Part shown: in pieces, positions 289 to 60,432 of the stretch | Numbering within the stretch: the stretch's first letter is position 1 | How the letters are laid out: every line of letters begins with the position of its first letter | Assembly (NCBI GenBank): GCA_965263035.1 | Contig: OZ253580.1 | Location: 6,048,001-6,112,000, forward strand | Direction of reading: 5' to 3' | Source of the DNA: Acidobacteriota bacterium | Lineage (GTDB): Bacteria > Acidobacteriota > UBA6911 > RPQK01 > JAJDTT01 | Length of the DNA: 64,000 nt | The notes under the pieces: generated by a model | What the model was told of the DNA's origin: nothing | Databases searched by the model: none | Seen by the model: only the letters and a program-made list of their open reading frames with translations | Translations under genes and position numbers: made by a program

Positions 289-1983
289 TTGAAGCACCGG
301 AAACGGAAAAACCTGCGCAGCCGCGAGTGGTTCGACACTCCCGAACTGTACGGGTGGACTCGACAGGCGGCCTTGCAGGGACTCGGACTGGACCCCGCAG
401 TGTACCGGGACCGTCCCCTCATCGGCATCTGCAACACCTGGAGCGAGTTGACCCATTGCAATGCCCACCTGCGCACGTTGGCCCAGCGGGTCAAGGAGGG
501 GGTCTGGCAGGCCGGCGGGGTGCCCTTCGAATTTCCGGTCATCTCGTTGGGCGAGTTCAACATGCGCCCCACCTCCATGCTCTTCCGGAACCTCTTGAGC
601 ATGGACGTGGAGGAATGCATCCGGGCCAATCCTCTGGATGGGGTGGTCCTCCTGGGAGGTTGCGACAAGACCACGCCGGGACTGCTCATGGGCGCCGTGA
701 GTGCGGACGTGCCGGCGATTCTCGTGACCGGCGGGCCACAACTCACCGCCCACTGGCGAGGCCAGGAGTTGGGATCCTGCACCGATTGCAGGCGCTTCGA
801 GGCCGAACTTCGAGCCGGGAGGATCGGCCAAGAAGACTGGCTGGATCTCCAGGGCGCCATGGTCCGGAGTCCGGGCCACTGCATGACCATGGGCACGGCC
901 TCCACCCTGGCCACGCTGGCCGAAGCCCTGGGAATGGCACTGCCCGGGAACGCCGCCTACCCGGCGGCCGATTCCCGCCGAACGCGCTTGGCGCACCGGG
1001 CCGGACGCCAGATCGTGCGCCTGGTGGAACTGGACCTGAAACCTTCTCGGCTGCTGAGCGCCGGATCGTTCGACAACGCCATCCGCACCCTTCATGCCAT
1101 CGGCGGTTCCACCAACGCCATCGTTCATCTCCTCGCGGTGGCCGGGCGGACCGGCATCCCGCTGTCCCTCAAGAGGTTCGACGAACTGTCCCAGACCACG
1201 CCGGTGCTGCTGGATCTGAAGCCGGCCGGCCGCTTCCTGATGGAGGACTTCGCCTACGCGGGAGGGGCCCCGGCGCTCCTGAGTGAGATGGCGCCCCTGC
1301 TGGATCTGGACCAGCCGACGGTCACCGGTCTGAGCCTGGGCGAAAACCTCCAGGGGGCGCGCAACGACAATCCGGAAGTCATCCATCCCATGGACCGCCC
1401 TCTGGAGACCTCCGGCGGCCTGGCCGTTCTCTATGGATCCCTGGCCCCGGACGGATGCATCATCAAGCACAGCGCCGCCACGCCCGGACTTCTCCGCCAT
1501 GAGGGCCGGGCGGTGGTTTTCGAAGACCACCACGAACTACTGGAGGGAATCGACGGTCCGGACCTGGACGTCGGTCCCGAAGACGTGCTGGTGCTTCGGG
1601 GCGTCGGCCCCCTCGGCGGGCCGGGCATGCCCGAGTGGGGCTTGCTCCCGATCCCTCGAAAGCTGCTCCGAGCGGGCGTTCAGGACATGGTCCGGATCAG
1701 CGACTCACGTATCAGCGGCACGGCTCGAGGCACGGTGGTGGTCCACGTCTGTCCGGAAAGCGTGGCGGGAGGTCCTCTGGCCGCAGTCCGGACCGGCGAT
1801 CGTATCCGGCTGGACGTCCCCGCGCGGCGGTTGGACCTCCTGGTGGAGCCCCGAGAGATCCAGCGCCGGATGGCAGGCATCCGTTCGACCGTCCGCCCCG
1901 CCGCGAGAGGCTACCGCCGGCTCTACTTCGAGCACGTCCTGCAGGCCGACCAGGGATGTGATTTCGATTTCCTGCAGGCGTAG
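289..1983 (+). CDS. IlvD/Edd family dehydratase (dihydroxy-acid or sugar-acid dehydratase)
   Basis: Motifs PLIGICNTWSELTHCNAH, GGCDKTTPG, GHCMTMGTAST, GGSTNA, GGPGMPE, SDSRISGT. TTG start at 289 follows GGGGAGGA; the ORF track starts at 223. Confidence 0.9.
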   Translation: MKHRKRKNLRSREWFDTPELYGWTRQAALQGLGLDPAVYRDRPLIGICNTWSELTHCNAHLRTLAQRVKEGVWQAGGVPFEFPVISLGEFNMRPTSMLFRNLLSMDVEECIRANPLDGVVLLGGCDKTTPGLLMGAVSADVPAILVTGGPQLTAHWRGQELGSCTDCRRFEAELRAGRIGQEDWLDLQGAMVRSPGHCMTMGTASTLATLAEALGMALPGNAAYPAADSRRTRLAHRAGRQIVRLVELDLKPSRLLSAGSFDNAIRTLHAIGGSTNAIVHLLAVAGRTGIPLSLKRFDELSQTTPVLLDLKPAGRFLMEDFAYAGGAPALLSEMAPLLDLDQPTVTGLSLGENLQGARNDNPEVIHPMDRPLETSGGLAVLYGSLAPDGCIIKHSAATPGLLRHEGRAVVFEDHHELLEGIDGPDLDVGPEDVLVLRGVGPLGGPGMPEWGLLPIPRKLLRAGVQDMVRISDSRISGTARGTVVVHVCPESVAGGPLAAVRTGDRIRLDVPARRLDLLVEPREIQRRMAGIRSTVRPAARGYRRLYFEHVLQADQGCDFDFLQA

Positions 1984-2250
1984 GGAGCGGCGGTTTCCAA
2001 CCGCCGAACAGGAGCGGCGACTTTCTTGTCGCCGACAGGGGGGCAGGGGGGACGGAGTCCCCACTTTACACTTTCCGGCCCCTACACTATCCGGCCGCCG
2101 AATCGAATAGGGACACAGAAGAGCAGGCGGCAAGAAAGCCGCCTGGCCCAGTGGGCGACAAGAAAGTCGCCCCTCCAGCAGGCGGCAAGAAAGCCGCTTG
2201 GCCCGGTGGGCGATTAGAAATCGCCCCTCCCAGTGGGCGGCAAGAAAGCT
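1983..2250. repeat. REP/REPIN-like hairpin cluster A
   Basis: Several short palindromes (GGCGGTTTCCAACCGCC, GGCGACTTTCTTGTCGCC, GGCGGCAAGAAAGCCGCC, GGCGATTAGAAATCGCC) between convergent genes; similar to 12613-12741. Confidence 0.8.
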
Positions 2251-2287
2251 GTCCCTCCTCGTCGCCTCTCCACGGTCTTCTTCCCGT

Positions 2288-5157: not shown

Positions 5158-5158
5158 G

Positions 5159-11972: not shown

Positions 11973-11982
11973 TTTCCACCGG

Positions 11983-12612
11983 ATCGGGTCGGGCGCAGGG
12001 GATTGCGCCCCTGCACCCTCCCACACCACCGGACGTACCGTTTTCAGTATCCGGCGGTTGGAGTCACCCGAGGCTCTTTCGAGCCTCGTACAGGGCCTTT
12101 CTTTCCGGTTTCCGCCGCCGCTGAGACTTGATCTCCGCCCTTCCGGCTTGCCGGGCTCCACCCGTGGGCCTTCCATGCCGGGTCCGAGGAGGGTTCCCGT
12201 CGCCCCGCTGTCGGAGGTGTTGCGATCCCGCTGACGAGTCCACCATAGGGCCAGTCCGACTCCTTCGGTCCTTCGCTCCACCGGCATTACCCGGCTTCTT
12301 CGCTACTACGACCTCTGCTGACTTCTCAAGGGCTCTCACCCTTGAGATCTCCCCGAGTAAGGTGCTGCATCTTTCCCCCCGGGCCGCCCGGCTCTACCTG
12401 ATGCGTCTGGATGGGGTTCGGGTTTCGCTGTTGCTCGCCAGCTCACCACCCGCACCCGGCCTCACTGCCGGTTCGTGTTCCTGCGGTCGTGGGTTTGCCT
12501 TCCGCTTCCTTCAGCTTCACCTCGCGGCTACGCCTTGCGGTTCGGCTAGGGTTGGTCCCATCACCTCCCTTGGGATCTTTCATCCCTTAGATACAGCCCA
12601 TGTCGGGCGCAC
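11983..12612 (-). ncRNA. ORF-less group IIC intron (630 nt)
   Basis: Minus strand begins GTGCGCCCGACATGGG. It has a DII/DIII-type GAGATCTC..GAGAAGTCAGCAGAGGTCGTAGTAG stretch, DV AACCGCCGGATACTGAAAACGGTACGTCCGGTGGTGTG (CGC triad), and DVI ending CCCGACCCGAT. No RT ORF in DIV. Inserted 4 nt after a stem-loop. Confidence 0.9.
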
Positions 12613-12741
12613 GAGCGGCGACTTTCTTGTCGCCGATTAGGGGGGGTAAGGGGGGACGGAGTCACCCCTCCTCTTCCTCCGTCCGGAACAGACGACAAGA
12701 AAGTCGCCTGTCCCAGTGGGCGACAAGAAAGTCGCCCCTCC
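12613..12741. repeat. REP/REPIN-like hairpin cluster B (intron target)
   Basis: GAGCGGCGACTTTCTTGTCGCCGA and GGGCGACAAGAAAGTCGCCCCTCC units, similar to cluster A. Confidence 0.8.
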
Positions 12742-12799
12742 AAGCGCGCCTACATTTTTCTCAGCATTGGCACGATGATCTGACCCCGAATATCCCGAT

Positions 12800-19162: not shown

Positions 19163-19252
19163 GGCCTCACCCCCAGTGCGGTCAAGCTATCCCCCACCCC
19201 GGGGGGTGTCAAGTCGGGACGCCCCTGGTGGGCGCCCTCGTTCGTCTTGAAA

Positions 19253-19438
19253 GGAGGGGCGATTTCCAGTCGCCCTCTTCCACCCCTGCCCCAGACTCAC
19301 TCCGGTGTCGGCGGGAGGGGTGATTTCCAATCGCCCTCTTCCACCCCTGCCCACAAACTCACCCCGGTGTCGGCGGGAGGGGTGATTTCCAATCGCCCTC
19401 TTCCACCCCTGCCCACAAACTCACCCCGGTGTCGGCGG
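19253..19438. repeat. Three tandem 61-62 bp repeats, each containing a REP-type hairpin
   Basis: Unit GGAGGGG(C/T)GATTTCCA(G/A)TCGCCCTCTTCCACCCCTGCCC..ACTCAC(T/C)CCGGTGTCGGCG at about 19253, 19314 and 19376. Confidence 0.85.
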
Positions 19439-19490
19439 CTAGAAACCGCCGCTCCCATTCGGCGGCTGGAAACCGCCGCTTGTCTGTTTA

Positions 19491-19660
19491 AATGGGGCCG
19501 TCCGGGTCGCTCATGAGCGACCCGGACGGCGGTGGCTGGACCGTACCGCCGCGGACTGTTACGAACCGTATGGGAGTGAGGTCGGCCACCGTCTTTCCCG
19601 ATGTCCTGAATGGATACGAGGGCATCAAGGCCCGAATGACAAGCACAGGAGACAGGAAAG
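19491..19660 (+). ncRNA. IS110 bridge RNA (5' hairpin, target-binding loop, donor-binding loop)
   Basis: Hairpin GCCGTCCGGGTCGCTC-AT-GAGCGACCCGGACGGC. Target loop holds ACCGCCGC (19545-52) and ATGGGAG (19570-76); donor loop holds ATGGATAC (19610-17) and GACAAG (19638-43). Confidence 0.85.
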
Positions 19661-20608
19661 ATGAAACAGCATACCGTAGGCATCGACATCTCGAAAGCGC
19701 ACCTGGACGCGCACCGGCTGGCCGACGGCCATTCCGCCCAGTTCGACAATGACCCGGCCGGCTTCCGGGCGCTGATTGATTGGATCGGAACTCCGGTCGA
19801 GTGCGTCGCGTACGAGGCCACCGGTCCCTACCACCGGGACCTCGAGGAAGCGCTGTCCAAAGCGAAGCTGCCGCTGGCGAAGGTGAACCCCTGGCAGGCG
19901 CGGCGCTTCGCCGAGGCGACCGGGAGCCGCGCCAAGACCGACGCCGTAGACGCTCGGAAACTGGCCCAGCTGGCCGCCACGCTGGAGCCGCGCCGGACCC
20001 AGGTGCCGTCCAAAACGCAACGCCGGCTCCAGGATCTGCAGACGTCCCGGGACGCGCTGATGCGCCAGCGCACGGCCGCGCTCAACCGCCGCCGACAGCT
20101 CCGCGAACCCCTGCTCAAACAGCAGAACCAGATCCAGATCAACATGTTCGAGCGCCACCTGCGCGCCATCGACCGCAAAATGCAGCAGCTGATTGCGGCC
20201 GACGAGGCGCGGGCCCGCAAGTTGGAGATCCTCACCTCCATCCCGGGGATCGCGGCCACCACCGCCGCCGGTCTGCTGGCCGAGATGCCCGAGCTGGGCG
20301 CCCTCAGCGGCAAGGCCGCCGCCAGTCTGGCCGGGTTGGCCGCCGTTCCGCGCGAGTCGGGGGCTTGGCAGGGCCGGGCCTTCATCCGGGGCGGACGGGC
20401 GCGGGCGCGACGGCTCCTGTACATGCCGGCGGTGGCCGCCCTGCGTTGGAACCCCGACTTGGCCGAGGTGTACCGGAGGCTGAGCGAGCGCGGCAAGCCC
20501 GGCAAGGTGGCCCTCGTCGCCGTCATGCGCAAGCTTATCGTCCTGGCCAACACCCTCGTCCGGCAGGACCGCACCTGGTTGCCCGTAGCGCCCCGAGCGA
20601 CCTTCTGA
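19661..20608 (+). CDS. IS110 family transposase/recombinase (DEDD RuvC-like plus Tnp20 domain)
   Basis: VGIDISK, YEATG, AKTDAVDA, SIPGIA, LAGLAAVPRESG, GGRARAR..LYM, KVALVAVMRKL. Confidence 0.95.
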   Translation: MKQHTVGIDISKAHLDAHRLADGHSAQFDNDPAGFRALIDWIGTPVECVAYEATGPYHRDLEEALSKAKLPLAKVNPWQARRFAEATGSRAKTDAVDARKLAQLAATLEPRRTQVPSKTQRRLQDLQTSRDALMRQRTAALNRRRQLREPLLKQQNQIQINMFERHLRAIDRKMQQLIAADEARARKLEILTSIPGIAATTAAGLLAEMPELGALSGKAAASLAGLAAVPRESGAWQGRAFIRGGRARARRLLYMPAVAALRWNPDLAEVYRRLSERGKPGKVALVAVMRKLIVLANTLVRQDRTWLPVAPRATF

Positions 20609-21092
20609 GGCCACGGAGAAACCCCGTGAGGAAAGGGAGCGTGTGGACCCCCTGATGGCCGTCTGTCGAACTTCCGGTCAAGTCTGGCCGGAAGCTTGCT
20701 TACGGCCATGAAAGCTCTTCACGCCCTGGGGAGCGCCGGGTCACCCGAAGGGTCGCAGCGAAGCGGAGGAGCCGGAGGCTTGACCCGACGCTCCCCAGGG
20801 CGTATCCGGACCTCCCGGAGGACTGACGTCGACGATCTCAGGTCCCTCGATCCAGTTATCGGTCCACTCATCGCCCCCTGCACGGCGCCCGGCGGATCCA
20901 GCTCGATCTCCGCCTCACCTCCGGCGGAAGAACGCTCCTCCTAACCCTGTGCCCTTTGGACCGGACAGATCACGTACTAACGACACGGGATGGAAACACC
21001 GATTAGCACCCACCACTTGCAACATGGATACTCCCGTTCGGCGTTTGGAAAACCGCCGCTCCCAAGGAGATTGCCGTATTCTGGGACCGGTA

Positions 21093-30840: not shown

Positions 30841-31130
30841 TCACATGAACTTGGATTCTTCGTTTCCCTGCTGCGCGGGGACTCATTCTCCATGACGCAA
30901 GTATCCGTCGGCAACCTTGCAGCTGTCATGATCATGGGTTCTGCCGTTTCTTCCTGCTCCCGACAGGAAAAACACACTGGAATCGGGCTGCCGGGAACAT
31001 GCCGGTGATAGTGGATGTCAGGCCGCCGGGTTCCAAAGGCGGGTTTGCAGAGGGCGTGAAGACCCAAGTTGGCAAGGTGCCGATCTGGGTGGCTACGAAT
31101 TGATGCCTTGGATGAGCTGGCCGGCGGCTT

Positions 31131-31220
31131 GGAAGGGGGACATTCTTGTCCCCCTGAATCCCAAGATTCGGCGACTGCAAATCGCCGCTCCGGTTCGGCG
31201 GCTGGAATGTCGCCGCTCCC
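31131..31220. repeat. REP-like hairpin cluster
   Basis: GGGGACATTCTTGTCCCC, CGGCGACTGCAAATCGCCGCTCC, CGGCGGCTGGAATGTCGCCGCTCCC. Confidence 0.7.
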
Positions 31221-33619: not shown

Positions 33620-33790
33620 GGTTTGGCTAGGAGTCTGCGCGGTAGAAATGATCGTAGCGAGAAAGTGGGGAATCGAGGCCAGATTTTCTCGATTTGGAGG
33701 TGCATAGTTGTTCTATTCGCCGAGAAATCGAGGAAATATGGACCGATTCTACCGCTTTCGCAGTAGATCAATTTCTGCGGCGCAGGCTCC

Positions 33791-33890
33791 TAGGAGGGGC
33801 GACTTTCTTGTCGCCCACTCCGGTCTTGTTCGCTCACGCCTCGGGGTTTCGTTACTCGGGAGTTCGGCGGCAAGAAATCCGCCGCCCCCA
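33791..33890. repeat. REP-like hairpin pair
   Basis: GGGCGACTTTCTTGTCGCCC and CGGCGGCAAGAAATCCGCCG. Confidence 0.7.
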
Positions 33891-38475: not shown

Positions 38476-38521
38476 TCCGGGCATCGGTGGAGAGCCCGCG
38501 GGTTCGAAACCGACTTCAGCC

Positions 38522-42238: not shown

Positions 42239-42521
42239 CCCAGATTATTCACCACGCAAACATAAAATGAGCAAGCGTGCCCGTCATGTCGAGTCGGATC
42301 AGAGGGTTACCGGATACCCACAGAAAACGGCTGAGACCCGACCTGGGTGAAACGCTATCTTTGTTTTCAACGTCGGTTTAAACTCAGGATTCAAGGGGGG
42401 CCGAAAGCCAAGAAATTCCACGGTTTTCGTCCCCTCCAAGGGCGGCATAAAGAGGCGGCGTGCCCGTCATTTGTGGTATGATTATAGTGCTAAGAAACAA
42501 CCACAATAAACGGAGCACGCC

Positions 42522-43994: not shown

Positions 43995-44445
43995 TGGACG
44001 GAGGAGGCATCGGGCCCGTGGAAGGGACCGAAACGGTGGGGATTTCTCACCGGAAAGTCAACCTGTTGGCGGGTGACGGTCCCCCTGGCCGGAAAACGGT
44101 TAATGACTGGTTCAATCGTCCTGTTTTCGAGCCGATTCAGTCGAATCGACAGAGGTTCAAGCCCAGATTATTCACCACGCAAACATAAAATGAGCAAGCG
44201 TGCCCGTCATGTCGAGTCGGATCAGAGGGTTACCGGATACCCACAGAAAACGGCTGAGACCCGACCTGGGTGAAACGCTATCTTTGTTTTCAACGTCGGT
44301 TTAAACTCAGGATTCAAGGGGGGCCGAAAGCCAAGAAATTCCACGGTTTTCGTCCCCTCCAAGGGCGGCATAAAGAGGCGGCGTGCCCGTCATTTGTGGT
44401 ATAGTTATGGTGTTACAAAAACAACCACAATAAACGGAGCACGCC

Positions 44446-45918: not shown

Positions 45919-46369
45919 TGGACGGAGGAGGCATCGGGCCCGTGGAAGGGACCGAAACGGTGGGGATTTCTCACCGGAAAGTCAACCTGTTGGCGGGTGA
46001 CGGTCCCCCTGGCCGGAAAACGGTTAATGACTGGTTCAATCGTCCTGTTTTCGAGCCGATTCAGTCGAATCGACAGAGGTTCAAGCCCAGATTATTCACC
46101 ACGCAAACATAAAATGAGCAAGCGTGCCCGTCATGTCGAGTCGGATCAGAGGGTTACCGGATACCCACAGAAAACGGCTGAGACCCGACCTGGGTGAAAC
46201 GCTATCTTTGTTTTCAACGTCGGTTTAAACTCAGGATTCAAGGGGGGCCGAAAGCCAAGAAATTCCACGGTTTTCGTCCCCTCCAAGGGCGGCATAAAGA
46301 GGCGGCGTGCCCGTCATTTGTGGTATAGTTATGGTGTTACAAAAACAACCACAATAAACGGAGCACGCC

Positions 46370-47842: not shown

Positions 47843-48082
47843 TGGACGGAGGAGGCATCGGGCCCGTGGAAGGGACCGAAACGGTGGGGATTTCTCACCG
47901 GAAAGTCAACCTGTTGGCGGGTGACGGTCCCCCTGGCCGGAAAACGGTTAATGACTGGTTCAATCGTCCTGTTTTCGAGCCGATTCAGTCGAATCGACAG
48001 AGGTTCAAGAGAAACCGGGCTCCGACCGCACGAAAACGCCGGGTTGGAAGCCCTTATCAACATGTCCCATGAATAATCTGGG

Positions 48083-48450: not shown

Positions 48451-48687
48451 CCTATCCCTTACTGTCTCTTACCGGCCGGCAAGTATAAACGAAAGTTCCG
48501 TTTCTACCTGATCGCAGATGGCATCAAGCAGCTCTTGTTCGGCCGTGCCGCCGGAATTTGGAAAACCTCGTCATGAACCCCGAGCGAACTTGCTTCCCCT
48601 GTTCTCCTAAACCTCCAGAAAGATGGGGAAAGTCCAGATGCGTGGGAAGCTCGACGGATGTGCGGTTGCCTTGTAAACTGGAGTTTC

Positions 48688-50151
48688 ATGTCGAGCCTCT
48701 CACCCGACCCGTTGCCGCCGTTCCATCCCGGCTTCTCCCGGCGGGAGATGCTCCGGCGCACTTCCACCGGGTTCGGGATGCTGGCCCTGTCGGCCCTCCT
48801 GGCCGACCCGGCATACGCCGGTCGGGCTCCCTCTACTCCCAAAAATCCGCTGGCGCCCAAACCGAGCCATTACAAGCCCCGGGTCCGCAACGTCATCTTC
48901 TGCTATCTGTCGGGGGGCCTCTCCCATATCGATTCCTTCGATCCCAAGCCCCGCCTGGACAAGGAGGCGGGCGAGCCCATGCCGTTCAGGACCGAACGGA
49001 CCATGTTCAACCTGGACGGCAACATCTTCCCCAGTCCCTGGAAGTTCCGGCGTTACGGGAGCAGCGGAATCCCCGTCAGCGACCTGTTTCCCCACATCGG
49101 AAGCGTGGCCGACGAGTTGACGGTGATCCGTTCCATGACCGCCAAGTTCATGGCCCACGCCCAAGCCAACTACTATTTCCACTGCGGGACCCCCTTCTCG
49201 GGGTTCCCCAGCATGGGCGCCTGGATCAGCTACGGCCTGGGCAGCGAGAACCGGAACCTGCCCGGTTTCGTAGTGCTGGGGAGCGGCGGGATCCCCCTGG
49301 GGGGCATCAACATGTTCGGCAACGGATTCCTGTCGGCCGTCCACCAGGGATCCTTCATCTTTCCCGGACGCGAGGAGCCTCTCGGCAACATCCGGCCCCG
49401 GGAATCGGACCTCCGCCAGCGACAGACGATGTCTTTCGTCAACGACCTGGACCGGGAATTTCTGGCGGCTGCCGGCAGGCACTCCCAGGTGGAGGCCGCC
49501 ATCCGGAACTACGAGACCGCCTACCGGATGCAGAGTTCGGTGCCCGAGTTGGTGGATCTGAGGGGAGAAAGCCAGGCCACTCGAAAGTTGTACGGTGTCG
49601 ACTCGGCAGTTCCGGCCAAGGCGGCCTACGCACGCCAGTGCCTGGTGGCCCGGCGGCTCGTGGAACGGGGAGTGCGTTTCGTGGAGCTCACCATGGTCCG
49701 GGGCGACGGCAAGGGGGGCATGAGCAACCCGTGGGACCAGCACACCAAGCTGGTTCACGGGCACGGCTCCAACGCCCTGGCGGTGGACCAGCCGGTGGCG
49801 GCCCTGATCAAGGATCTCAAGGCCCGGGGTCTCCTGGACGAGACCCTGGTCATCTTCTCGGGCGAGTTCGGACGGACGCCTTTCATCCAAGGCGAGGACG
49901 GCCGGGACCACAATCCCTTCGGCTTCAGCCTCTGGCTGGCCGGCGGCGGCCTCAAGAAGGGATTCATCTACGGCGCCACCGACGAGTACGGTTACCGGGT
50001 GGTGGAGAACCGGCAGACCATCCACGATCTCCACGCCACCATCCTCCACCTCATGGGACTCGATCACCAGGCGCTCAGCTACCGTTTCGGCGGACGAGAC
50101 TTCCGTCTCACCGACGTCCACGGGCACGTGATCCAGGGTATTCTGGCCTGA
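48688..50151 (+). CDS. DUF1501 domain protein with Tat-like signal (copy 1)
   Basis: [59 protein letters not shown]. Confidence 0.92.
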   Translation: MSSLSPDPLPPFHPGFSRREMLRRTSTGFGMLALSALLADPAYAGRAPSTPKNPLAPKPSHYKPRVRNVIFCYLSGGLSHIDSFDPKPRLDKEAGEPMPFRTERTMFNLDGNIFPSPWKFRRYGSSGIPVSDLFPHIGSVADELTVIRSMTAKFMAHAQANYYFHCGTPFSGFPSMGAWISYGLGSENRNLPGFVVLGSGGIPLGGINMFGNGFLSAVHQGSFIFPGREEPLGNIRPRESDLRQRQTMSFVNDLDREFLAAAGRHSQVEAAIRNYETAYRMQSSVPELVDLRGESQATRKLYGVDSAVPAKAAYARQCLVARRLVERGVRFVELTMVRGDGKGGMSNPWDQHTKLVHGHGSNALAVDQPVAALIKDLKARGLLDETLVIFSGEFGRTPFIQGEDGRDHNPFGFSLWLAGGGLKKGFIYGATDEYGYRVVENRQTIHDLHATILHLMGLDHQALSYRFGGRDFRLTDVHGHVIQGILA

Positions 50152-50271: not shown

Positions 50272-51975
50272 ATGGTCGACGTCATGAGAAAGCGAACCAA
50301 GTCTCGGTTCATTCTCATCGGGATCGGCATATTGGCTCTGATTTTCTGCCTGTGGGTCATTTTCCTTGAACCTCGGGGCGATTCCTCAAATGCCGTCAGT
50401 CTCGCTCCCCAAACGATCAGCGACGACGGAGCACGGGATTCTGACCCGGTGCGCAATAGAAACGCTGAACGAGCGCACGTCAGGCTCCAAGGGTCAAGAT
50501 CGGCAGTCCCGGACGAATCCGTTCCAAATCAAGGCAGGCCTCCGCAATCTATTGGCTCGGAGAAGCGACGGGCAGTGCAATCGACCATTGCCGGCATCGT
50601 CGCGAACAGCCAGGATGGCGCTCCAATCCAAGGCGCACGCCTCAAGTTATCGCCGGTTGGCAGCGAGGACGTGCGGTCCGAAGCCGTCAGCGGTCACGAC
50701 GGCAGTTTTCGGATGACCATCCGCGACGCAGGGCGATACACGCTCCGTGCCCAGGCGGACAGCTTCCGCCCCCATTCCACCGACGGGATACTCATTACGC
50801 CTGCTGAGAGAAGCCTCCAAAAGAACATCCTGATGACACCGCGGTTGGAACTTCGGGGCAGAGTCGTAGACCGCCATTCTCGAGGTATCGCTGGAGCGCA
50901 GGTCCGGCTCCGAGAAGAGACCCCAGGGCGGTTCGGGCGGTTCAAATCTTGTTGCGGCGAGCAGAGTGACGAATCGGGCCGTTTTCTGATGCCCAGACCA
51001 CCTGTTTCCGGAACCTTCTTCGCTGAGGCCGCACATCCTGAATACGAACTTGATTCTCGCGTTCCTGTGACATTGCCCAAGGATGACGAGGTGGTCATCA
51101 CGATGCGCCGCGTGCCGGAACCGCTATTGGCATCGATATCTGGTCACGTCTGGGATGCGAAAGGACATCCTATACACGGGGCAAGTGTCGGATTAATTGA
51201 ACGTGAACAAGACAGTCGTGTTTCGAACTATCTTGGAGACACGTCGACGGACCCGATGGGCCGCTTTTTCTTTCCCCGAGTCCGTTGGGGTACGTATTCG
51301 ATTAGTGCGGACGCAGAAGGCTACGCCGTACCAAGTCCTGGCCAAGGAAGGAAGGACTTAATAGTTGAATCCAGTCAGGAATATGAAATCGATCTGGTTC
51401 TGGAACGTCAGACGGCAGTCCAAGGTGTCGTTGTCGACACGGAGGGTCGGCCCGTTACCAAAGCTGGCGTAAATGCCGTTTTCGAACTGGGAACAGGAAG
51501 AACATTTATCGGTGTTTTTACTCCCTCTGACGGCACTTTCAATATTCCAGAAGTTCCCCCTGGAAGACTCTGGATGCAAGTGACTCATCGTGATTACGTT
51601 ACTTATGAAGCCGTTTTAGTGACGCCGACAGACGAATTCCTCACGGTCACCCTGCAGCCGGGATTTTCGTTGACCGGTTATGTCATGGACCAAAATAATG
51701 AACCGATAAGAGAATTCTCCCTTCGACTGTCCCCAGCCAGCCGCCAACACGACGTACCCGCCTCCCCCTTCGATTCCAAGACCGCGGACGTCTCCCCATC
51801 GGACGGTCATTTCCGCGTCAACGGTCTGGCACCCCAGACATACATTCTCTCTCTGCGCCCGCCGAACGCAGAAAGCTTGGAAACTCGTCTCGAACTCTCA
51901 GAATCGACAAGCGTCACCATCGTGCACGACCCGTCAGACTCGGACGCACCCATCCAGGTCCGCAAGTCCTGGTAG
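50272..51975 (+). CDS. Carboxypeptidase-regulatory-like domain repeat protein (module copy 2)
   Basis: Clear paralog of 36706-38373. Confidence 0.75.
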   Translation: MVDVMRKRTKSRFILIGIGILALIFCLWVIFLEPRGDSSNAVSLAPQTISDDGARDSDPVRNRNAERAHVRLQGSRSAVPDESVPNQGRPPQSIGSEKRRAVQSTIAGIVANSQDGAPIQGARLKLSPVGSEDVRSEAVSGHDGSFRMTIRDAGRYTLRAQADSFRPHSTDGILITPAERSLQKNILMTPRLELRGRVVDRHSRGIAGAQVRLREETPGRFGRFKSCCGEQSDESGRFLMPRPPVSGTFFAEAAHPEYELDSRVPVTLPKDDEVVITMRRVPEPLLASISGHVWDAKGHPIHGASVGLIEREQDSRVSNYLGDTSTDPMGRFFFPRVRWGTYSISADAEGYAVPSPGQGRKDLIVESSQEYEIDLVLERQTAVQGVVVDTEGRPVTKAGVNAVFELGTGRTFIGVFTPSDGTFNIPEVPPGRLWMQVTHRDYVTYEAVLVTPTDEFLTVTLQPGFSLTGYVMDQNNEPIREFSLRLSPASRQHDVPASPFDSKTADVSPSDGHFRVNGLAPQTYILSLRPPNAESLETRLELSESTSVTIVHDPSDSDAPIQVRKSW

Positions 51976-52115
51976 GCCTGCGCGACGGCAACCGGCGTCA
52001 ATGCGATTCGTCGCGAGACACCGGCAGCACTTGGATTCCTTGCCTCTCGCCATCCACCATCGCTACACTTCCGATCAGCGGTGGAGAGCCCGCGGGTTCG
52101 AAACCGGCTTCAGTC

Positions 52116-55100
52116 ATGAAGAGTCTTTCAGCGAGCTTGGGCGCGAGTTCCGCGCTTTTCGTATGCCTGACCGTTGCTCTGGCCTCGCCTACGGATCCCG
52201 CCTCCCTGGAATTCTTCGAAAAAGAGATCCGCCCCCTGCTGGCCGATCGCTGCTATGAATGCCACAGCGCCCAGACGGCGACGCCATTTGCCGGATTGCG
52301 CCTGGACCGGCGCGAAGACCTGATCAAGGGGGGCGTCTCGGGACCGGCGGTCGTTCCGGGCAAGCCGGAGGAGAGCCCCTTGATCCTCCGCATCCAGGGC
52401 CGGCCCGCGTTGATGCCACCCACCGGTGCCCTGTCGGATGCCCAGATCCGGTCGCTCATCGAATGGGTGAAGATGGGAGCCCCTTGGACCGATCTTGCGG
52501 AGGCCTCTCAGGCGTCAGCCGGCGGTTTCGACCTGGAAGCTCGCAAGCGCAGCCACTGGGCCTGGCAACCGATCCGGTCCGTCCCGCCACCTGCGGTAGC
52601 CGACACCAATTGGCCGCTTCATCCTATGGACCGGTTCATTCTGGCCAAACTGGAGCAGGAGGGGTTGGAACCGGCGCCGGCGGCGGACCGGTACACGCTG
52701 ATCCGGCGCCTTTCCTACGATCTGCGGGGACTGCCACCCCTCCCCGGAGAGGTCCAGGCCTTCGTCGCCGATTCCTCTCCACGGGCCTACGAAAACCTGG
52801 TGGACGACTTCCTGGACTCGCCTCATTTCGGCGAGCAATGGGCCCGCCACTGGATGGACCTGATCCGCTACAGCGAGTCCCACGGCAGTCAGGGCGACCC
52901 CAAGGCGCCTTACGCCTGGCGTTACCGCGACTACCTGATTCGGGCTCTGAATGCCGACATCCCCTACGACCAGCTGATCCGGGAACATCTGGCGGGCGAC
53001 CTGCTTCCTTCCTCCAGGATGAATCCGGCCCTGGGGATCAACGAGTCCCTCCTGGCCACGGCTCACTTCCGCATGGTGGAGCATGGGTTCCAGCCGGTGG
53101 ACCCCCTGGGAGACCGAATCAAGTGGACCGACAACCAGGTCGATGTCGTTTCCAAGGCATTTCAGGGGCTCACCATCTCGTGCGCGCGCTGCCACGACCA
53201 CAAGTTCGACGCCATCAGCCAAGAGGACTACTACGCCCTGTACGGAGTGCTCTACGGAGCCCGGCCGACCCAGCGGGCCATCGACGACCCGGAGCGCCTC
53301 GATTGGGGCCGGAGTCAACTCTCGGAGGTGAAGGAGGAGTTTCGCCGGCGGCTGGCTGAAATCTGGATCCAGGAAGCGTCGGCGCTAGCCTCCATGCTAT
53401 TGGAAGCACCGCATGAAACCTTCAGCAACCCACCCGACTCTCCCTGCCAGCCTGAAGAGTCAGCGGACACTGCCACTGATCCGGCGGCTCCGGAAGCCGA
53501 GGCCGCTCCCATCGAAACGGGCGAGACCAAGGTTGCCGGGACCAAGAGCCCGGCCGCCGAACAGGCGCTGACTCGAGCGCTGGAGGAGGCGCTGTGCGAA
53601 CCCGGCAGTCCCCTGGCGGCGTGGATTCGCCTGGCAGGCAAGGAGGGTGCCGAGTTCCGTCAGGAATGGGGCACCTTGAAGGAGGAATGGGACAACAGGA
53701 TCCGCACCGACAGGGCCTTCAACCGGGATCACTTTCAGATCCGCTGGGATCTGTCCGGCCCCGATTACGCGGAGTGGATCGGACACGGCACCGGACTTCC
53801 TCCCGAACCGTCTCCGCCCGGCGAGTTCTCTGTGGCTGCCGAAGGGAAACGGATCCTCAGCGGAATTTATCCCGGGGGTGTCTACACCCATCTCCTGTCC
53901 GGCAAGCACAACGGCGTAATCCAGTCGCCCCGCTTTACCATCGACAGCAATTTCATCAGCCTCAGCGTCCTCGGATCCGACTTCAGCTTCGCCCAGTTGA
54001 TCGTGGAGAACTACGCCGTCCCCCGAGGCGGCATCTACCACATGCGGCACAACCTCAAAACGGACCGGATGGAGTGGGTTCAATGGGACGTGGCCTATTG
54101 GAAAGGATTCTCCGCCTATATCGAGTTGGCCACCCGGGACGACGTCACACTCACCAGATACGACTCCACCGAGACCAGAACCAAGGCGGAGAAGCGCACC
54201 GACGGCCGTTCCGCCATCGGCGCCAGCCGGATCCTGTTTCACGAGACCAAGGAGACGCCGCGAGAGACGCGCCCGCCGCTTCTCTATCTGCTCCGGGGCC
54301 TGCCACCCCGCTCGCCCGCCGATCTGGCCGAGCGATTGGGCCGCCGCCTGGTGGAAGCCATCGAAGCCTGGCGGGATGGCGGCGCATCCGAGCTCCAGGC
54401 CGCATATCTGGACGCGTTCGTCCGCGCCGACCTGCTGCCCCGGTCCCTGGACCGGCTCCCCTCCCTGGATTCCCTCCTGAGCCAATATCGGGAAGTCGAT
54501 TCCCAAGTGCCGGTTCCCCGGCGCGCACCTTCCATCCTGGACGAAGCGGCGCCGGATCATCCCTTCCTGGTCCGCGGGGACCAGGATGCGCACGGCGAAC
54601 CGGTCCCCAGGCGCTATCTTTCGGCCCTTGGGAGCCTTCCCTACCCCGATCCGGGACGGGTCCGCCTGGACTTGGCCCGGGACCTCACTTCGGCCGACAA
54701 CCCCCTCACCTCCCGGGTGATGGTCAACCGCATCTGGCGCTACCTGTTCGGATACGGTTTGGTGCGCACCACGGACAACTTCGGAAAGCTGGGCGACCCG
54801 CCCACGCATCCGGAGCTTCTGGATCATCTGGCCGACCGGTTCGTGGAGGAGGGCTACTCCATCAAGAGCATGGTGCGCCGGCTGGCCACATCTCAGACCT
54901 ACCGCATGAACAGCCAGGGATCCGCGATGGCGCTCCGATTGGACCCCGCCAACCGGCTCCACCAACATGCCAACCTGAGACGGCTGGAGGCCGAGGAGAT
55001 CCGCGACGCCATGCTGCGAGTCTCCGGAAACCTGGACCCCGCGCTGTACGGAGCCTCCATTCCCGTCCAACACCAGATCGAGAAGGACAAGAGTACGGGA

Positions 55101-55541
55101 CTCGGGCCGTCTGGCTCCCTGGACGGGGCCGGAAGACGCAGCATCTACCAGGCGATTCGGCGAAACTTCTACAACTCCTTCCTGGAGACCTTCGGGCAAC
55201 CCAAACCCGCCAGCACCCGGGGGCAACGGGATCAGACCAACGACCCGGCCCAATCCCTGACCCTGCTCAACAGCCCCTTCGTCTGGAACCAGGCCGAGTC
55301 CTGGGGCAAGCATCTCGCGGCCGGTGAAGGCAACACCGTCCCGTCCCGCGTCCGCCACATGTTCTTCAAGGCTCTGGGCCGGGCACCCACCGCCCAGGAG
55401 GCCTCCCGCGCCGAGGCGTATCTCAACACGGTCATCGACCAGCGAAAGATCCGGGAGCACCTGGTCCTCACGGACCGCGCGGTCTGGACCGATCTTGCCC
55501 ACGTTATCTTCAACCTGAAGAGCTTCATCTATCTCCAGTAG
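52116..55541 (+). CDS. Planctomycete cytochrome c plus DUF1549/DUF1553 (PSD1) domain protein (copy 2)
   Basis: Paralog of 38522-41926 with the same motifs. Confidence 0.9.
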   Translation: MKSLSASLGASSALFVCLTVALASPTDPASLEFFEKEIRPLLADRCYECHSAQTATPFAGLRLDRREDLIKGGVSGPAVVPGKPEESPLILRIQGRPALMPPTGALSDAQIRSLIEWVKMGAPWTDLAEASQASAGGFDLEARKRSHWAWQPIRSVPPPAVADTNWPLHPMDRFILAKLEQEGLEPAPAADRYTLIRRLSYDLRGLPPLPGEVQAFVADSSPRAYENLVDDFLDSPHFGEQWARHWMDLIRYSESHGSQGDPKAPYAWRYRDYLIRALNADIPYDQLIREHLAGDLLPSSRMNPALGINESLLATAHFRMVEHGFQPVDPLGDRIKWTDNQVDVVSKAFQGLTISCARCHDHKFDAISQEDYYALYGVLYGARPTQRAIDDPERLDWGRSQLSEVKEEFRRRLAEIWIQEASALASMLLEAPHETFSNPPDSPCQPEESADTATDPAAPEAEAAPIETGETKVAGTKSPAAEQALTRALEEALCEPGSPLAAWIRLAGKEGAEFRQEWGTLKEEWDNRIRTDRAFNRDHFQIRWDLSGPDYAEWIGHGTGLPPEPSPPGEFSVAAEGKRILSGIYPGGVYTHLLSGKHNGVIQSPRFTIDSNFISLSVLGSDFSFAQLIVENYAVPRGGIYHMRHNLKTDRMEWVQWDVAYWKGFSAYIELATRDDVTLTRYDSTETRTKAEKRTDGRSAIGASRILFHETKETPRETRPPLLYLLRGLPPRSPADLAERLGRRLVEAIEAWRDGGASELQAAYLDAFVRADLLPRSLDRLPSLDSLLSQYREVDSQVPVPRRAPSILDEAAPDHPFLVRGDQDAHGEPVPRRYLSALGSLPYPDPGRVRLDLARDLTSADNPLTSRVMVNRIWRYLFGYGLVRTTDNFGKLGDPPTHPELLDHLADRFVEEGYSIKSMVRRLATSQTYRMNSQGSAMALRLDPANRLHQHANLRRLEAEEIRDAMLRVSGNLDPALYGASIPVQHQIEKDKSTGLGPSGSLDGAGRRSIYQAIRRNFYNSFLETFGQPKPASTRGQRDQTNDPAQSLTLLNSPFVWNQAESWGKHLAAGEGNTVPSRVRHMFFKALGRAPTAQEASRAEAYLNTVIDQRKIREHLVLTDRAVWTDLAHVIFNLKSFIYLQ

Positions 55542-56436: not shown

Positions 56437-56855
56437 TTCTGAGAGAGTAGGAAGCAAAATGATGAATGTTTGCGTCGAAAGGTTCGTCGATACAGCCGTA
56501 CGGATGATACCGATCATCCACGAAATCGAAGGTGATGATGCGTAGCCGCCACTACCAGATTGGTTTCAAACTAATACTGATACAAAGTTAGGGTCCGTTT
56601 CTGGATGGGTACTTACGTCTCACTCCTCGGAAAACAATAGGAAATTGGAGTAGCAATCAATGGTCTCTACTTTATATGCGTCCAAGAGACCTTTTTCCTT
56701 CCGAACGCGGTGAGTAAAAACGAAGTCCCTTGGCCTCAGATGCCAATTGCCTCCGGTTGGAGACGCCCGCGGAGCCGGCGTCCCAATGCAGCCCTGGCTG
56801 ACGCAAATATACTGGATATCGACGAGTGGACAATTCCTCTGTAGACTGGATCTCG

Positions 56856-58319
56856 ATGCCGCCTGTGCCGCACTACACCTCGCCGCCATTCCCACCCGGT
56901 TTCTCCCGGCGCGAAATGCTGCGGCGGACATCCACCGGATTCGGGATGCTGGCGCTCTCGGCCCTCATGGCCGACCCCGCATACGCGGGCCTGGCACCCT
57001 CCCCTCCCGAGAATCCCTTGTCCCCCCGGCGGGGACATCACCAGCCTCGGGTCAAGAACGTCATCTTCTGCTATCTGTCGGGAGGCCTGTCCCAGATCGA
57101 TTCCTTCGATCCCAAGCCCCGGCTGGACAAGGAAGCGGGCGAACCCATGCCGTTCAAAACCGAACGAACCATGTTCAACCTGGACGGCAACATCTTCCCC
57201 AGTCCGTGGAAGTTCAAACGCTACGGAAGCAGTGGAATCCCCGTCAGCGATCTCTTTCCCCACATCGGCAGCGTCGCCGACGAGTTGACGGTGATCCGCT
57301 CCATGACCGCCAAGTTCATGTCCCACGCCCAGGCCAACTTCTATTTTCACTGTGGGACGCCCTTCGCCGGGTTTCCCAGCATGGGCGCCTGGATCAGCTA
57401 CGGGCTGGGCAGCGAGAACCGGAACCTGCCCGGATTCGTGGTGTTGGGCAGCGGCGGGATCCCGCTGGGGGGCGTCACCATATTCGGCAACGGATTCCTG
57501 TCGGCCGTCCATCAAGGCTCGTTCATCTATCCCGAACGTAAGGAGCCTCTCGGCAACATCCGTCCCCGGGAATCGGACCTCCGCCAGCGACAGAGGATTT
57601 CTGTGATCGACGACCTGGACCGGGGATTTCTGGCTGCTGCCGGCGGCCACTCGCAGGTGGAAGCCGCCATCCGGAACTACGAGACCGCCTACCGCATGCA
57701 GAGCTCGGTGCCCGAGCTGGTGGACCTGAGTGGAGAAACCCCGGCCACCCGCAAGCTGTACGGTGTCGACTCCGCGGTTCCGGCCAAGGCGGCCTATGCG
57801 CGCCAGTGCCTGGTGGCGCGAAGGCTGGTGGAACGCGGCGTGCGTTTCGTCGAGCTCACCACGGTCCGAGGCGGCGGCGAGGCCATAGATGCCAATCCCT
57901 GGGACCAGCATACGAAGCTGGTCGAAGGGCACAGCGCCAACGCCTTGGTAGTGGACCAGCCCGTGGCGGCGCTGATCAAGGACCTCAAGGCCCGGGGCCT
58001 CCTGGACGAGACCCTGGTCATCTTCTCGGGCGAGTTCGGACGAACGCCATTCGTCCAGGGCAAGGACGGCCGGGACCACAACCCCTTCGGCTTCAGCCTG
58101 TGGCTGGCCGGCGGCGGACTCAAGAAGGGATTCATCTACGGCGCCACCGACGAGTACGGTTACCGCGTGGTGGAGAACCGCCAGACCATCCATGATCTCC
58201 ACGCCACCATCCTCCACCTCCTGGGGCTCGACCACCAAGAGCTCAGCTACCGCTTCGGCGGACGCGATTTCCGGCTCACCGACGTTCACGGAAGCGTGAT
58301 CCAGGGGATTCTGTCCTGA
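56856..58319 (+). CDS. DUF1501 domain protein with Tat-like signal (copy 2)
   Basis: Paralog of 48688-50151. Confidence 0.92.
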
Positions 58320-58330
58320 CTCGAGAAGGG

Positions 58331-58403
58331 GTAGGAGGGGGGACATTCTTGTCCCCCTCTTCAAAACGCATCCGGAATCGGGAACCGAGAGGCACCGCTC
58401 CCA
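58331..58403. repeat. REP-like hairpin
   Basis: GAGGGGGGACATTCTTGTCCCCCTC and a CCGCTCCC tail. Confidence 0.6.
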
Positions 58404-58948: not shown

Positions 58949-58992
58949 CCGTCACTTACGGCGTCCCGGCCGGACTCAGGCATACGGTTACA

Positions 58993-59057
58993 GAAGGGGA
59001 CATCCTTGTCCCCCGTTCTCCATTGGGAGTTCAGCGGTTGGAAACCGACGCTCCTGT
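58993..59057. repeat. REP-like hairpin pair
   Basis: GGGGACATCCTTGTCCCC and CGGTTGGAAACCGACGCTCC. Confidence 0.6.
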
Positions 59058-59122: not shown

Positions 59123-60352
59123 ATGAAACGATCGTTGCTCGTGTTTCTGTTGACGAATACGCCTTGGTGGGTCGCCGGAGCGGATCGGGCTGATCAGGTC
59201 GGGACCTGGAGAGGTCTCCAGATCGCTCCGGAAGAGAGATGCTCTGAGTACGACCGGGGCGACTATCCCATTCCGCCGGCTCTGGAAGATGAGATCGTCG
59301 CCGTGATGGAACAGATTTACGGGCGCTGCTTCGAAGACACTACGGACACCACCGTTGAGCACATCGTCGCTGTTTCGGAGGCTCACGACAGCGGATTGTG
59401 TTCGGCCGATGCAGAGACGAAAAAAGAATTTTCCAGGGATCCTCTCAACTTGACCCTCGCCAGTCCGCACCTGAACAGCGTCAAGGGGGATCGGGACGCA
59501 GCCGAGTGGTTGCCCGGCGAAAACCGGTGTTGGTTCGCCGACCGGGTGCTCCAGGTACGCCTCAAGTACGACTTGACGATAGACCAGGCGGAAGCCGATG
59601 CCCTGGAACTCATTCTGGCCCGATGCGAGTCTACCGAGTTGAAGGTCCGCGACTGTTCGGAAGACCAGCCGGAACCCTGCCCCTCAGGTTCTTCCACTCT
59701 GATCTTCCCCCAATATGTCGACGGTGAATACGGAGGTTTCCAGAACCGGACACGCCTGATTCTGCTCAACTTGGCGGCCACGACCGACAATCCGGTGATC
59801 GTCCGGTATCTCGACGACATGGGTCAAGTCGTTGACAGTCAGACCCATACGGTTCCGGCCCGCGGGCTGATCGACCTGAGTACCAGCGGCGAGGGCCCGC
59901 TGAAGGTGGGACCTCTGACCGTCGAATCCGAGTTGGCGGAGGATTCCCTGCTGCGAGGTTCCGTCGTCTACGAGCTGCTGGGACACCGGGTCTCGGTTCC
60001 GGCAGCGAAGCTGACCGACGAGGCCACCGTCTTTGTCAGCAAGTCTCCGCAAGAAAATACCGGCATCGCTCTGTTCAATCCCAACCCGGAAGATCCTGTT
60101 GAACTGGAACTCGCGCTGCACGATGCGGACGGGAGCCGTGTTGGGCAAGTTGACCTGACTCTGGAACCCGGACAACATCTGGCCCGCTATATGGACGAGG
60201 CCCCATTGTTCCCGGACGCCCTGGGTCCCCAATCCGAGTTCGTCGGACACGCCATTATCAGGAGCACGGAGGATGGACAGTTCGCCGTCGTCAGCATATT
60301 ACAGGATACAAGGACGGGAGCCGTCGCCCTTGTAACGCCGGGAATACGATAA
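59123..60352 (+). CDS. Secreted HNH (DUF1524-like) nuclease fused to a C-terminal beta-rich domain
   Basis: Signal peptide; EHIVAVSEAHDSG..DPLNLTLA..NSVKGDRDAAEWLP..KYDLTID; C-terminal TGIALFNPN-type domain. Confidence 0.7.
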   Translation: MKRSLLVFLLTNTPWWVAGADRADQVGTWRGLQIAPEERCSEYDRGDYPIPPALEDEIVAVMEQIYGRCFEDTTDTTVEHIVAVSEAHDSGLCSADAETKKEFSRDPLNLTLASPHLNSVKGDRDAAEWLPGENRCWFADRVLQVRLKYDLTIDQAEADALELILARCESTELKVRDCSEDQPEPCPSGSSTLIFPQYVDGEYGGFQNRTRLILLNLAATTDNPVIVRYLDDMGQVVDSQTHTVPARGLIDLSTSGEGPLKVGPLTVESELAEDSLLRGSVVYELLGHRVSVPAAKLTDEATVFVSKSPQENTGIALFNPNPEDPVELELALHDADGSRVGQVDLTLEPGQHLARYMDEAPLFPDALGPQSEFVGHAIIRSTEDGQFAVVSILQDTRTGAVALVTPGIR

Positions 60353-60394
60353 ATATGCGTTTCCTTCCCGAGGGGACATCCATTTCCCCGTTAG

Positions 60395-60432
60395 CCATTG
60401 GGAACTCGGCGGTCGGAAACCGCCGCTCTTGC
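60395..60432. repeat. REP-like hairpin
   Basis: CGGCGGTCGGAAACCGCCGCTC. Confidence 0.65.

Follow-up and report, generated by a model that had tools for sequence, protein, structure and literature searches.

We analyzed a 64,000-nucleotide stretch of DNA (the window; C1:6048001-6112000 of a complete genome of 6,198,070 bp, with window coordinates used throughout unless marked C1) that carries clusters of repetitive extragenic palindromes (REPs), an insertion sequence (IS) of the IS110 family and a group IIC intron. The REP family is very probably the common address of these two unrelated RNA-guided elements, and we hold the full mechanism proposed below with the same confidence. On the conserved REP tail, IS110 inserts at GCT^CC and the intron at GCTC^C, one base apart as drawn, as a preliminary description of this DNA had stated. 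Genome-wide, 22 of 24 intron copies and 8 of 13 IS110 copies directly follow a strict REP hairpin with such a tail, and guide and target covary for both elements. These results bear out the earlier proposal of a shared landing pad whose tail is read by a bridge RNA and by the exon-binding site 1 (EBS1) of an intron.

A REP family with a conserved tail is abundant in the genome and its congeners

The genus carries a REP family whose 6-bp G+C-rich stems have covarying arms and enclose a purine-rich loop, and whose 3' tail is conserved as GCTCC or CCTCC. For counting, a hairpin qualified under a strict definition if its 6-bp stem had no more than one mismatch, its 3' arm fitted NNC(G/C)CC and its purine-rich loop contained AA. 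Hairpins with the tail GCTCC were called type A, those with CCTCC type B and those with TGTCCC or TGGCCC type C. A looser census, accepting any 6-bp hairpin with at most one mismatch plus a 5-mer, returned 1008 sites for GCTCC and 475 to 1061 for control 5-mers; it was uninformative, and the arm- and loop-restricted definition was used in its place.

The strict scan placed REP-like hairpins in nine intergenic clusters of the window, where at least eight had been described before, and all nine lie between open reading frames (ORFs) with Pfam matches. The arms covary as GGCGAC/GTCGCC, GGCGGC/GCCGCC, GGCGAT/ATCGCC, GGCGGT/ACCGCC and GGGGAC/GTCCCC. Proteins encoded in the window carry PSCyt1/PSCyt2/PSD1 and DUF1501 domains (Pfam), a set typical of planctomycetes. 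The clusters are as follows.

1984..2260, both strands: REP cluster with all sites empty (strict scan and repeat families D11 and D15); minus-strand type-A REPs at 1989-2005 and 2016-2033, each followed by GCTCC; G-rich hairpin at 2046-2064; plus-strand type-C and type-B REPs at 2126-2225
12613..12745, both strands: REP mosaic with the intron (strict scan); minus-strand type-A REP at 12617-12634, whose tail GCTC (12613-12616) is the end of the 5' exon of the intron (intron-binding site 1, IBS1); G-rich hairpin at 12650-12668; plus-strand type-C and type-B REPs at 12691-12736
19228..19480: REP cluster left of IS110, with three units of about 62 nt that each contain a minus-strand type-B REP (repeat families D12 and D14); plus-strand type-A REPs at 19434-19450 and 19461-19477, the second forming, with GCT (19478-19480), the left target of IS110
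21033..21062, plus strand: right target of IS110, CCCGTTC, followed by a type-A REP at 21040-21057 with tail GCTCC
31126..31220: empty REP cluster (strict scan); minus-strand type-B-like GGGGAC REP at 31136-31153; two plus-strand type-A REPs with tail GCTCC at 31170-31186 and 31197-31214
33788..33890: REP cluster with a minus-strand type-B REP at 33798-33815 and a plus-strand REP with the degenerate tail GCCCC at 33866-33883
58329..58358, minus strand: lone GGGGAC-type REP with tail CCTCC (type B)
58986..59015, minus strand: lone GGGGAC-type REP with a degenerate tail
60372..60432: REP pair, an imperfect GGGGAA/GTCCCC hairpin at 60372-60389 (minus strand) and a type-A REP with tail GCTCT at 60408-60424 (plus strand)

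By repeat family D15, the stretch 1984-2064 corresponds to the intron-bearing mosaic at 12613-12668 but is empty. The sequence CGCCGCTCC occurs eight times in the window against 2.05 expected, a count reached by 1 of 100 shuffles; six of the eight occurrences are REP tails, and those at 4639 and 49280 are not among the strict REPs.

Across the genome, the strict definition found 225 empty sites of hairpin plus GCTCC and 184 of hairpin plus CCTCC, together with 22 sites reading hairpin plus GCTC|GTGCG (intron) and 10 reading hairpin plus GCT|TGTCTG (IS110; two of the ten are solo left-end remnants). About 32 of about 263 type-A sites, some 12%, are occupied. With about 263 type-A tails among 12.4 million position-strands, the binomial P values for the presence of the two elements on strict type-A tails were about 1e-40 and 1e-101. 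An exact 23-nt degenerate REP pattern matched 96 times in the genome and its reversed control not at all, and a covariance model gave at least 159 matches at an E value of 0.01 or less. The same pattern was present in all eight congeners compared (18 to 164 matches each) and absent from the 22 searched genomes of other genera. The hairpins, whose possible rarity had been raised against the earlier proposal, are thus not rare.

A mostly ORF-less group IIC intron follows the REP tail GCTC

The window intron and its parts (intron family 1) are placed as follows.

11983..12612, minus strand: ORF-less group IIC intron, family 1, 630 nt (from Rfam, with ends taken from the copies)
12268-12531: intron domains D1 to D3
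12433-12436: EBS1 (GAGC), in the terminal loop of D1
11983-12059: intron domains D5 and D6

The intron matched RF02001 (86.4 bits), RF01998 (45.3 bits) and RF00029 (40.4 bits, gathering score 40). It begins with GUGCG and ends with GAU, consistent with the GUGYG and AY termini of group II ribozymes, and its junctions on the minus strand read ...GTCGCCGCTC|GTGCG (12613|12612) and ...CCCGAT|CCGG (11983|11982). The sequence GAAGGAAG at intron nt 101-108 aligns to the conserved UCUGAAGGAAG of RF02001 and is a candidate for the AGGAA-containing bulge of IIC introns, a class that lacks EBS2. One minor correction concerns a reverse-transcriptase (RT) gene: the window contains no RVT_1 match, and its intron lacks such a gene.

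BLAST searches with both intron ends recovered 25 5' ends and 24 3' ends in the genome, of which 24 pair as copies. Eighteen copies are 630 nt long, one is 632 nt and two are 1848 nt and contain an RT/maturase ORF; three more, of 2401, 2415 and 5182 nt, are interrupted by other insertion sequences. ORF-less derivatives of 630 to 632 nt account for 19 of the 24 copies and are 96 to 99% identical to one another. The intron-encoded protein (IEP) of the full-length copy has RVT_1 and GIIM domains and a TIGR04416 match of 362 bits, with no HNH match at an E value of 0.001 or less. Presumably, the ORF-less copies are mobilized in trans by the RT/maturase of the two full-length copies. Two family-1 copies (C1:3067627-3070027 and C1:3923178-3925592) are each split by the same 1.78-kb multi-copy element, at different positions in the intron.

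The exon boundaries are nearly uniform. All but one of the 25 5' ends read ...GCTC|GTGCG (GTACG in one), and the 3' exon starts with C in 23 of the 24 copies. The remaining 5' end (56971, after CCTC) belongs to a 55-nt fragment cut off by another element and carries no information on EBS1. Of the two copies that do not follow a strict REP, the one at 436835 stands after another 7-bp hairpin and the one at 2489581 after a REP with two stem mismatches.

As a first EBS1 candidate we considered GGAGCG at nt 334. This is a conserved D3 element, which aligns to the RF01998 consensus and is present in a second intron family as well, and EBS1 was for that reason reassigned to the D1 loop, a placement confirmed by covariation. 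In the Rfam alignment, the variable 8-nt terminal loop of D1, GCGAGCAA (nt 175-182), contains GAGC, which is complementary to GCUC. We compared this loop between the genome of the window (G000) and the congeners G001, G003, G004 and G008. The loop reads GAGC in all 22 G000 copies at GCTC| in which it was found and in both G004 copies that follow GCTC, and it reads GAGG in all eight copies that follow CCTC in G001, G003 and G008. Overall, GAGC faces GCUC in 24 copies and GAGG faces CCUC in 8, with no exception among the loops found; three more G008 junctions after CCTC lie on contig ends short of the loop and stand outside this count. We propose that the intron would recognize the REP stem-loop as a structure, as other IIC introns do with terminators, pair the four nucleotides GAGC with the tail GCUC and reverse-splice at GCUC^C. 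Intron relatives were found in seven of the eight congeners, with no intron match in G002.

The IS110 left end encodes a predicted bridge RNA that matches the REP arm and tail

The IS110 element and the parts of its predicted guide RNA are listed below; copy counts refer to the 13 genomic copies with a left end, 12 of which have both ends.

19481..21032, plus strand: IS110-family element, 1552 bp (ends from 13 genomic copies)
19481-19660: left non-coding end
19661-20608: transposase coding sequence (315 aa)
20609-21032: right non-coding end, ending in the core CT
19531..19662, plus strand: predicted bridge RNA (from the fold, guide matches and guide/target covariation)
19531-19590: predicted target-binding stem-loop, with left target guide ACCGCCGC at 19545-19552 and right target guide AUGGGAG at 19570-19576
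19591-19662: predicted donor-binding stem-loop, with left donor guide AUGGAUAC at 19610-19617 and right donor guide GACAAG at 19638-19643

The transposase carries the Pfam domains DEDD_Tnp_IS110 (PF01548, 81.5 bits) and Transposase_20 (PF02371, 68 bits) and matches the NCBIfam model NF033542, "IS110 family RNA-guided transposase", with 208.2 bits against a cut-off of 140. Its junctions in the window read ...AAACCGCCGCT|TGTCTG (19480|19481) and ...GGATACT|CCCGTTC (21032|21033). In all 12 two-ended copies, the left flank and the element each end in the core CT, and no direct repeat of the flanks (target duplication) was seen around these 12. Ten of the 13 left junctions follow (A/G)CCGCCGCT| and the other three follow CACCGACGCT|.

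Folding of the left end gave -89.8 kcal/mol (z = -5.8; 0 of 200 shuffles as stable), with a strong hairpin followed by two stem-loops. On the 5' side of the first stem-loop, the left target guide is the sequence of the REP 3' arm plus GC, and on its 3' side the right target guide is complementary to CTCCCAT. On the 5' side of the second stem-loop, the left donor guide is the right end of the element itself, and on its 3' side the right donor guide complements CT together with the initial four bases of the left end. The four guides match target and donor over 8, 5, 8 and 6 nt; taken singly, these matches were reached by 174, 13,751, 62 and 1,439 of 20,000 left-end shuffles, and all four jointly by none.

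The left target guide occurs in the variants ACCGCCGC, GTCGCCGCU and ACCGACGC, and it covaries with the target in all three, the REP 3' arms or targets tracked being ACCGCCGC, GTCGCCGCT and ACCGACGC. In G000, the guide ACCGCCGC goes with an ACCGCC arm in 8 of 10 occupied REPs, compared with 67 of 225 empty ones (Fisher P = 0.002). All three G000 copies with guide ACCGACGC have the target CACCGACGCT, which lies inside another multi-copy element; empty CACCGACGCT sites occur at C1:4173844 and C1:1954208. In the congeners G007 and G004, copies with guide GUCGCCGCU follow GTCGCCGCT in three of four cases and GCCGCCGCT in the fourth, and two G007 copies with guide ACCGCCGC follow ACCGCCGCT. IS110 relatives were found in all eight congeners; close full-length relatives of the intron and IS110 (at least 87% identity) were confined to G001, G003, G004 and G007.

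In the mechanism that we propose, the left end would encode a bridge RNA whose left target guide reads the REP arm plus GC and whose right target guide reads CTCCCAT, while the ends of the element itself are matched by the second loop; a crossover at the core CT would then leave the element at arm-GCT^CC.

Several further features of the element were recorded. A perfect 15-bp hairpin at 19497-19530, at the start of the left end and upstream of the predicted bridge RNA, is conserved in the congeners. About 70 to 76 nt of the right end (window 20722-20799) are missing in three G000 copies (1474 to 1477 bp) and in one contig of public run X15, and pieces of the right end also occur elsewhere as separate short repeats.

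Both elements use pre-existing REPs, each of which can hold only one of the two

Because the core CT is present in both donor and target, the IS110 crossover can be drawn anywhere within it, and the distance to the intron site is accordingly 1 to 3 bases. Arm use differs between the elements: the ACCGCC arm is found in 8 of 10 REPs with IS110 and in 2 of 22 with the intron (Fisher P = 0.00016), from which we conclude that IS110 reads the arm sequence and that the intron takes any arm and reads the tail alone. Either insertion destroys the recognition sequence of the other element, so that one REP can hold only one of the two.

The mosaic upstream of the window intron is present genome-wide in 34 empty copies, 11 copies with the intron and 2 with IS110. 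The empty and IS110-holding copies identify it as a pre-existing target and not a part of the intron. Beyond the REP mosaic, flanks are unrelated between intron copies. In 20 of 24 copies the sense strand of the intron coincides with the G-rich strand, versus 95 of 225 empty type-A REPs. This bias fits insertion into the single-stranded lagging-strand template, as reported for class C introns (PMC8919778).

Contigs from public sequencing runs were also compared with the window. In one contig of run X12, position 19472 is followed by three other letters and then by 21054, the shorter side covering 73 nt; this contig represents the locus without IS110 and with one REP fewer. A second contig of the same run joins 11982 to 12613, skipping exactly the 630-nt intron, with the shorter joint discussed below. 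Both elements are present elsewhere in X12. Contigs of runs X6 and X9 end at repeats and are uninformative on occupancy, and in the RNA run X15, depth over the IS110 left end and the intron is not readable as expression. No IS110 circle junction was found among the contigs compared. Loose contig ends cluster at 12263-12270 and 12308-12311, which suggests that the intron itself has received further insertions in other strains.

RAYT-like genes and additional elements are associated with the same REPs

The preliminary description had supposed that the REP tail might be the motif of a REP-associated tyrosine transposase (RAYT) encoded outside the window. Matches to PF01797 were found at two loci genome-wide, both outside the window, and both Y1/RAYT-like genes have REPs of this family on both sides. 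One (L001:914-1588, minus strand; C1:2.4828 Mb) is an intact ORF of 224 aa, and the other (L002) is broken by a stop. The best NCBIfam match of both proteins was NF047646, "REP-associated tyrosine transposase", at 73.9 and 75.6 bits, below the cut-off of 80. At the intact gene (C1:2481900-2485300), the upstream REP holds IS110 and the downstream REP holds an intron of family 2. By covariance-model matches, the region from 2.44 to 2.60 Mb is very REP-rich. The conserved tag of the REPs is GGAG(C/G), the complement of (G/C)CTCC, and not the GTAG or CGTC tag of the published RAYT super-families.

Intron family 2 comprises seven copies of about 643 nt, all ORF-less. In the six copies with junctions read, the intron lies in the REP loop on the opposite strand (GGCGACT|TTCTTGTCGCC); for its EBS1 there are two candidates, AGUCGC at nt 185 and GAGUCG at nt 431. 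One family-2 copy lies just past the window end (C1:6114886-6115527), and one abuts a REP holding IS110 at C1:6115565. All four copies of a second IS110 type, about 1.75 kb long (C1:2038, 2456, 3361 and 4849 kb), adjoin a REP hairpin on the left and are followed by CCTCC on the right; from these junctions the type appears to target type-B REPs. Copies of a third intron family (RT of 438 aa, four copies) do not adjoin REPs, and neither do those of an IS with a DDE_Tnp_1_4 domain, for which the flanks of 13 genomic copies, all single, were examined.

These additional users raise a broader possibility, which we put forward tentatively and regard as somewhat less probable than its negation: the REP family may be a shared, RNA-addressable safe harbor for two IS110 types and two ORF-less intron families, at least four RNA-guided elements in all, which would retune a few guide nucleotides (C or G in EBS1; ACCGCC, GTCGCC or ACCGAC in the left target guide) to follow RAYT-diversified REP subtypes and partition the REPs by arm, tail, strand and loop. 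If so, REP diversification and guide evolution would form a coupled system and not a set of unrelated insertions.

Alternative explanations

The alternative that survives best, and to which we give an even chance, is that the overlap is incidental: each element needs an abundant, harmless and conserved site, the tail is the sole invariant non-palindromic sequence on offer, any RNA-guided element that settles there would come to read it, and there is no interaction or competition. In its favor are the low occupancy of type-A sites, the different arms favored by IS110 and the intron, the placement of the second IS110 type on type-B REPs and of the second intron family in the REP loop on the other strand, and the location of congener introns at CCTC tails. 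Yet this explanation differs from the common-address reading in emphasis only and nothing contradicts it, and the difference in arms could itself come from partitioning. Of the convergence of bridge RNA and EBS1 that had been proposed earlier, the reading of the tail by RNA stood up; convergence is an evolutionary reading of it, the tail being the only conserved non-palindromic stretch beside a variable stem.

Spread by duplication of larger segments that hold both REP and element is very unlikely. The three IS110 copies at CACCGACGCT, inside a multi-copy element of about 10 copies, could have travelled along with it; however, outside the REPs no relatedness is seen among the 3' flanks of the 24 intron copies or among the right flanks of REP-borne IS110 copies, upstream homology stops within about 130 nt, and the copies are scattered over the whole chromosome.

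That the hairpins are termini or footprints of the elements, with the association built in, is scarcely credible: some 60 to 130 nt upstream are alike in 11 to 14 intron copies, but 225 type-A sites and 34 mosaic copies are empty, the REP arms beside the elements vary, REPs occur in all eight congeners including G002 with no intron match and flank the RAYT-like genes, and the X12 contigs give the locus without IS110 and, by the weaker joint, without the intron.

Against the common-address reading itself stand several observations. Three of the 13 IS110 copies lie outside REPs, and two more (78134 and 5836383) follow degenerate hairpins only. The right-target-guide match is weak, since only 5 nt (CTCCC) pair in the window copy and the shuffle count given above makes it non-significant alone; copies with the right guide AAAAGCAG (2496249, 4766665 and 5836383) match their right flanks poorly, and in this lineage the left target guide, reading ...GCG against the target GCT, extends no further into the core than the C. 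The C/G difference in EBS1 may be a single evolutionary switch inherited by kin copies and genomes, in which case the counts are not independent. The X12 joint that skips the intron extends only 29 nt to one side, and whether that run is DNA or RNA is not on record. The covariance model was built from eight window REPs and 150 of 2,720 candidates were scored, so its match count is a lower bound. For the strand bias of the intron, origin and terminus were placed by GC skew alone. Finally, we infer RNA expression, actual mobility, mobilization in trans and competition from sequence; transcription, splicing, circles and transposition were not directly observed.

Relation to known systems

REPs as targets of IS110 elements, bridge-RNA covariation and hairpin-directed insertion of IIC introns are already published. 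ISPpu9 (7 of 7 copies), ISPpu10 (7 of 7) and ISPa11 (6 of 6) lie in REPs (Tobes & Pareja 2006, PMC1525189), and a target stem-loop adds specificity for ISPpu10 (2026 preprint, 10.64898/2026.03.19.712850). For IS621, pairing is described between the left guides and the bottom strand and between the right guides and the top strand (Durrant et al. 2024, PMC11208160). The element described here resembles these four in its DEDD plus Transposase_20 recombinase, CT core, lack of target duplication, REP targets and a left-end non-coding RNA with target and donor loops, here predicted from sequence, and its predicted guide arrangement is that of IS621. Unlike them, it resides in another host phylum and on another REP family, its left target guide covers the first core base only, and within a single genus its guide variants follow different REP arms and, in one case, a target outside REPs.

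In group IIC introns, IBS1 and EBS1 pair over 4 bp, a stem-loop upstream takes the place of IBS2, and the IEP has no endonuclease domain (Toor et al. 2006, PMC1702495). These introns insert after terminator stem-loops (Waldern et al. 2020, PMC7306698), and an IIC-attC lineage inserts in integron attC sites (PMC3001079). The family-1 intron shares with the terminator and attC introns the upstream stem-loop for IBS2, 3 to 4 bp of EBS1-IBS1 pairing, an IEP in which no endonuclease domain was found and an intergenic location. It differs in that the stem-loop is a REP without a U-run, IBS1 is the conserved REP tail, EBS1 switched between two REP tail types among congeners, and 19 of 24 copies are ORF-less.

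A precedent is Pseudomonas putida KT2440, where REPs hold both IS110 elements and a group II intron, the latter in 2 of 9 cases (22%; PMC1525189). Here, by comparison, the intron is in REPs in 22 of 24 copies, at a defined base that overlaps the IS110 site, and with guide covariation; no shared position is described for KT2440 in the available text of that report. This entry is what we found on group II introns in REPs, and other papers may describe more: the available text of Miura et al. 2022 (PMC8919778), supplements not covered, has no match for "repetitive" or "palindrom". With the same reservation, we did not find in the literature an IIC lineage specialized on REP tails with an EBS1 switch, its ORF-less expansion or a 1- to 3-base overlap with an IS110 crossover.

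In Thermosynechococcus elongatus, ORF-less group II introns multiply beside few protein-encoding copies (Mohr et al. 2010, PMC2882425). The present genome is similar in having many ORF-less intron copies and few that encode the protein. The T. elongatus introns are not known to be of class IIC or to target REPs.

Like REP/RAYT systems and REPINs, the present family consists of short extragenic palindromes in hundreds of copies, with clusters resembling bacterial interspersed mosaic elements and a Y1/HUH gene flanked by REPs. Unlike the REP/RAYT super-families, it has the tag GGAG(C/G), on the strand opposite the tail, in place of GTAG or CGTC (Di Nocera et al. 2013, PMC3733652); the string "GGAG" does not occur in the available text of that paper.

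As a natural system, these REPs permit comparison of two mechanistically unrelated kinds of RNA-guided integration, bridge-RNA recombination and group II intron reverse splicing, on a common target. Small, easily read changes in the guides (one EBS1 base; one to three bases of the left target guide) predict the REP subtype, which makes retargeting directly testable. To the known IIC target classes, terminators and attC sites, the family-1 intron adds a REP-specialized lineage, with ORF-less IIC derivatives at about 20 copies. REP/RAYT biology is extended to a planctomycete-like genus, including attack on the REPs that flank a RAYT gene. For genome engineering, REP-like repeats are multi-copy, apparently tolerated landing sites that would be addressable by either system.

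Other repeats in the window

A repeat of about 167 bp at about 33627-33793, resembling a miniature inverted-repeat transposable element, recurs at about 190 other places in the genome with 92 to 97% identity. The region 42239-48082 holds three head-to-tail copies of the DDE_Tnp_1_4 IS (1924-bp unit, each with a 490-aa ORF); the first two end about 73 bp short, with the right inverted repeat missing, and TCGAG is found at both outer flanks. A set of genes for a CarboxypepD_reg protein, a PSCyt1/PSCyt2/PSD1 protein and a DUF1501 protein is present in paralogous copies about 13.6 kb apart, at 36667-41926 and 50272-55541 and at 48658-50151 and 56826-58319, with 72 to 91% DNA identity.

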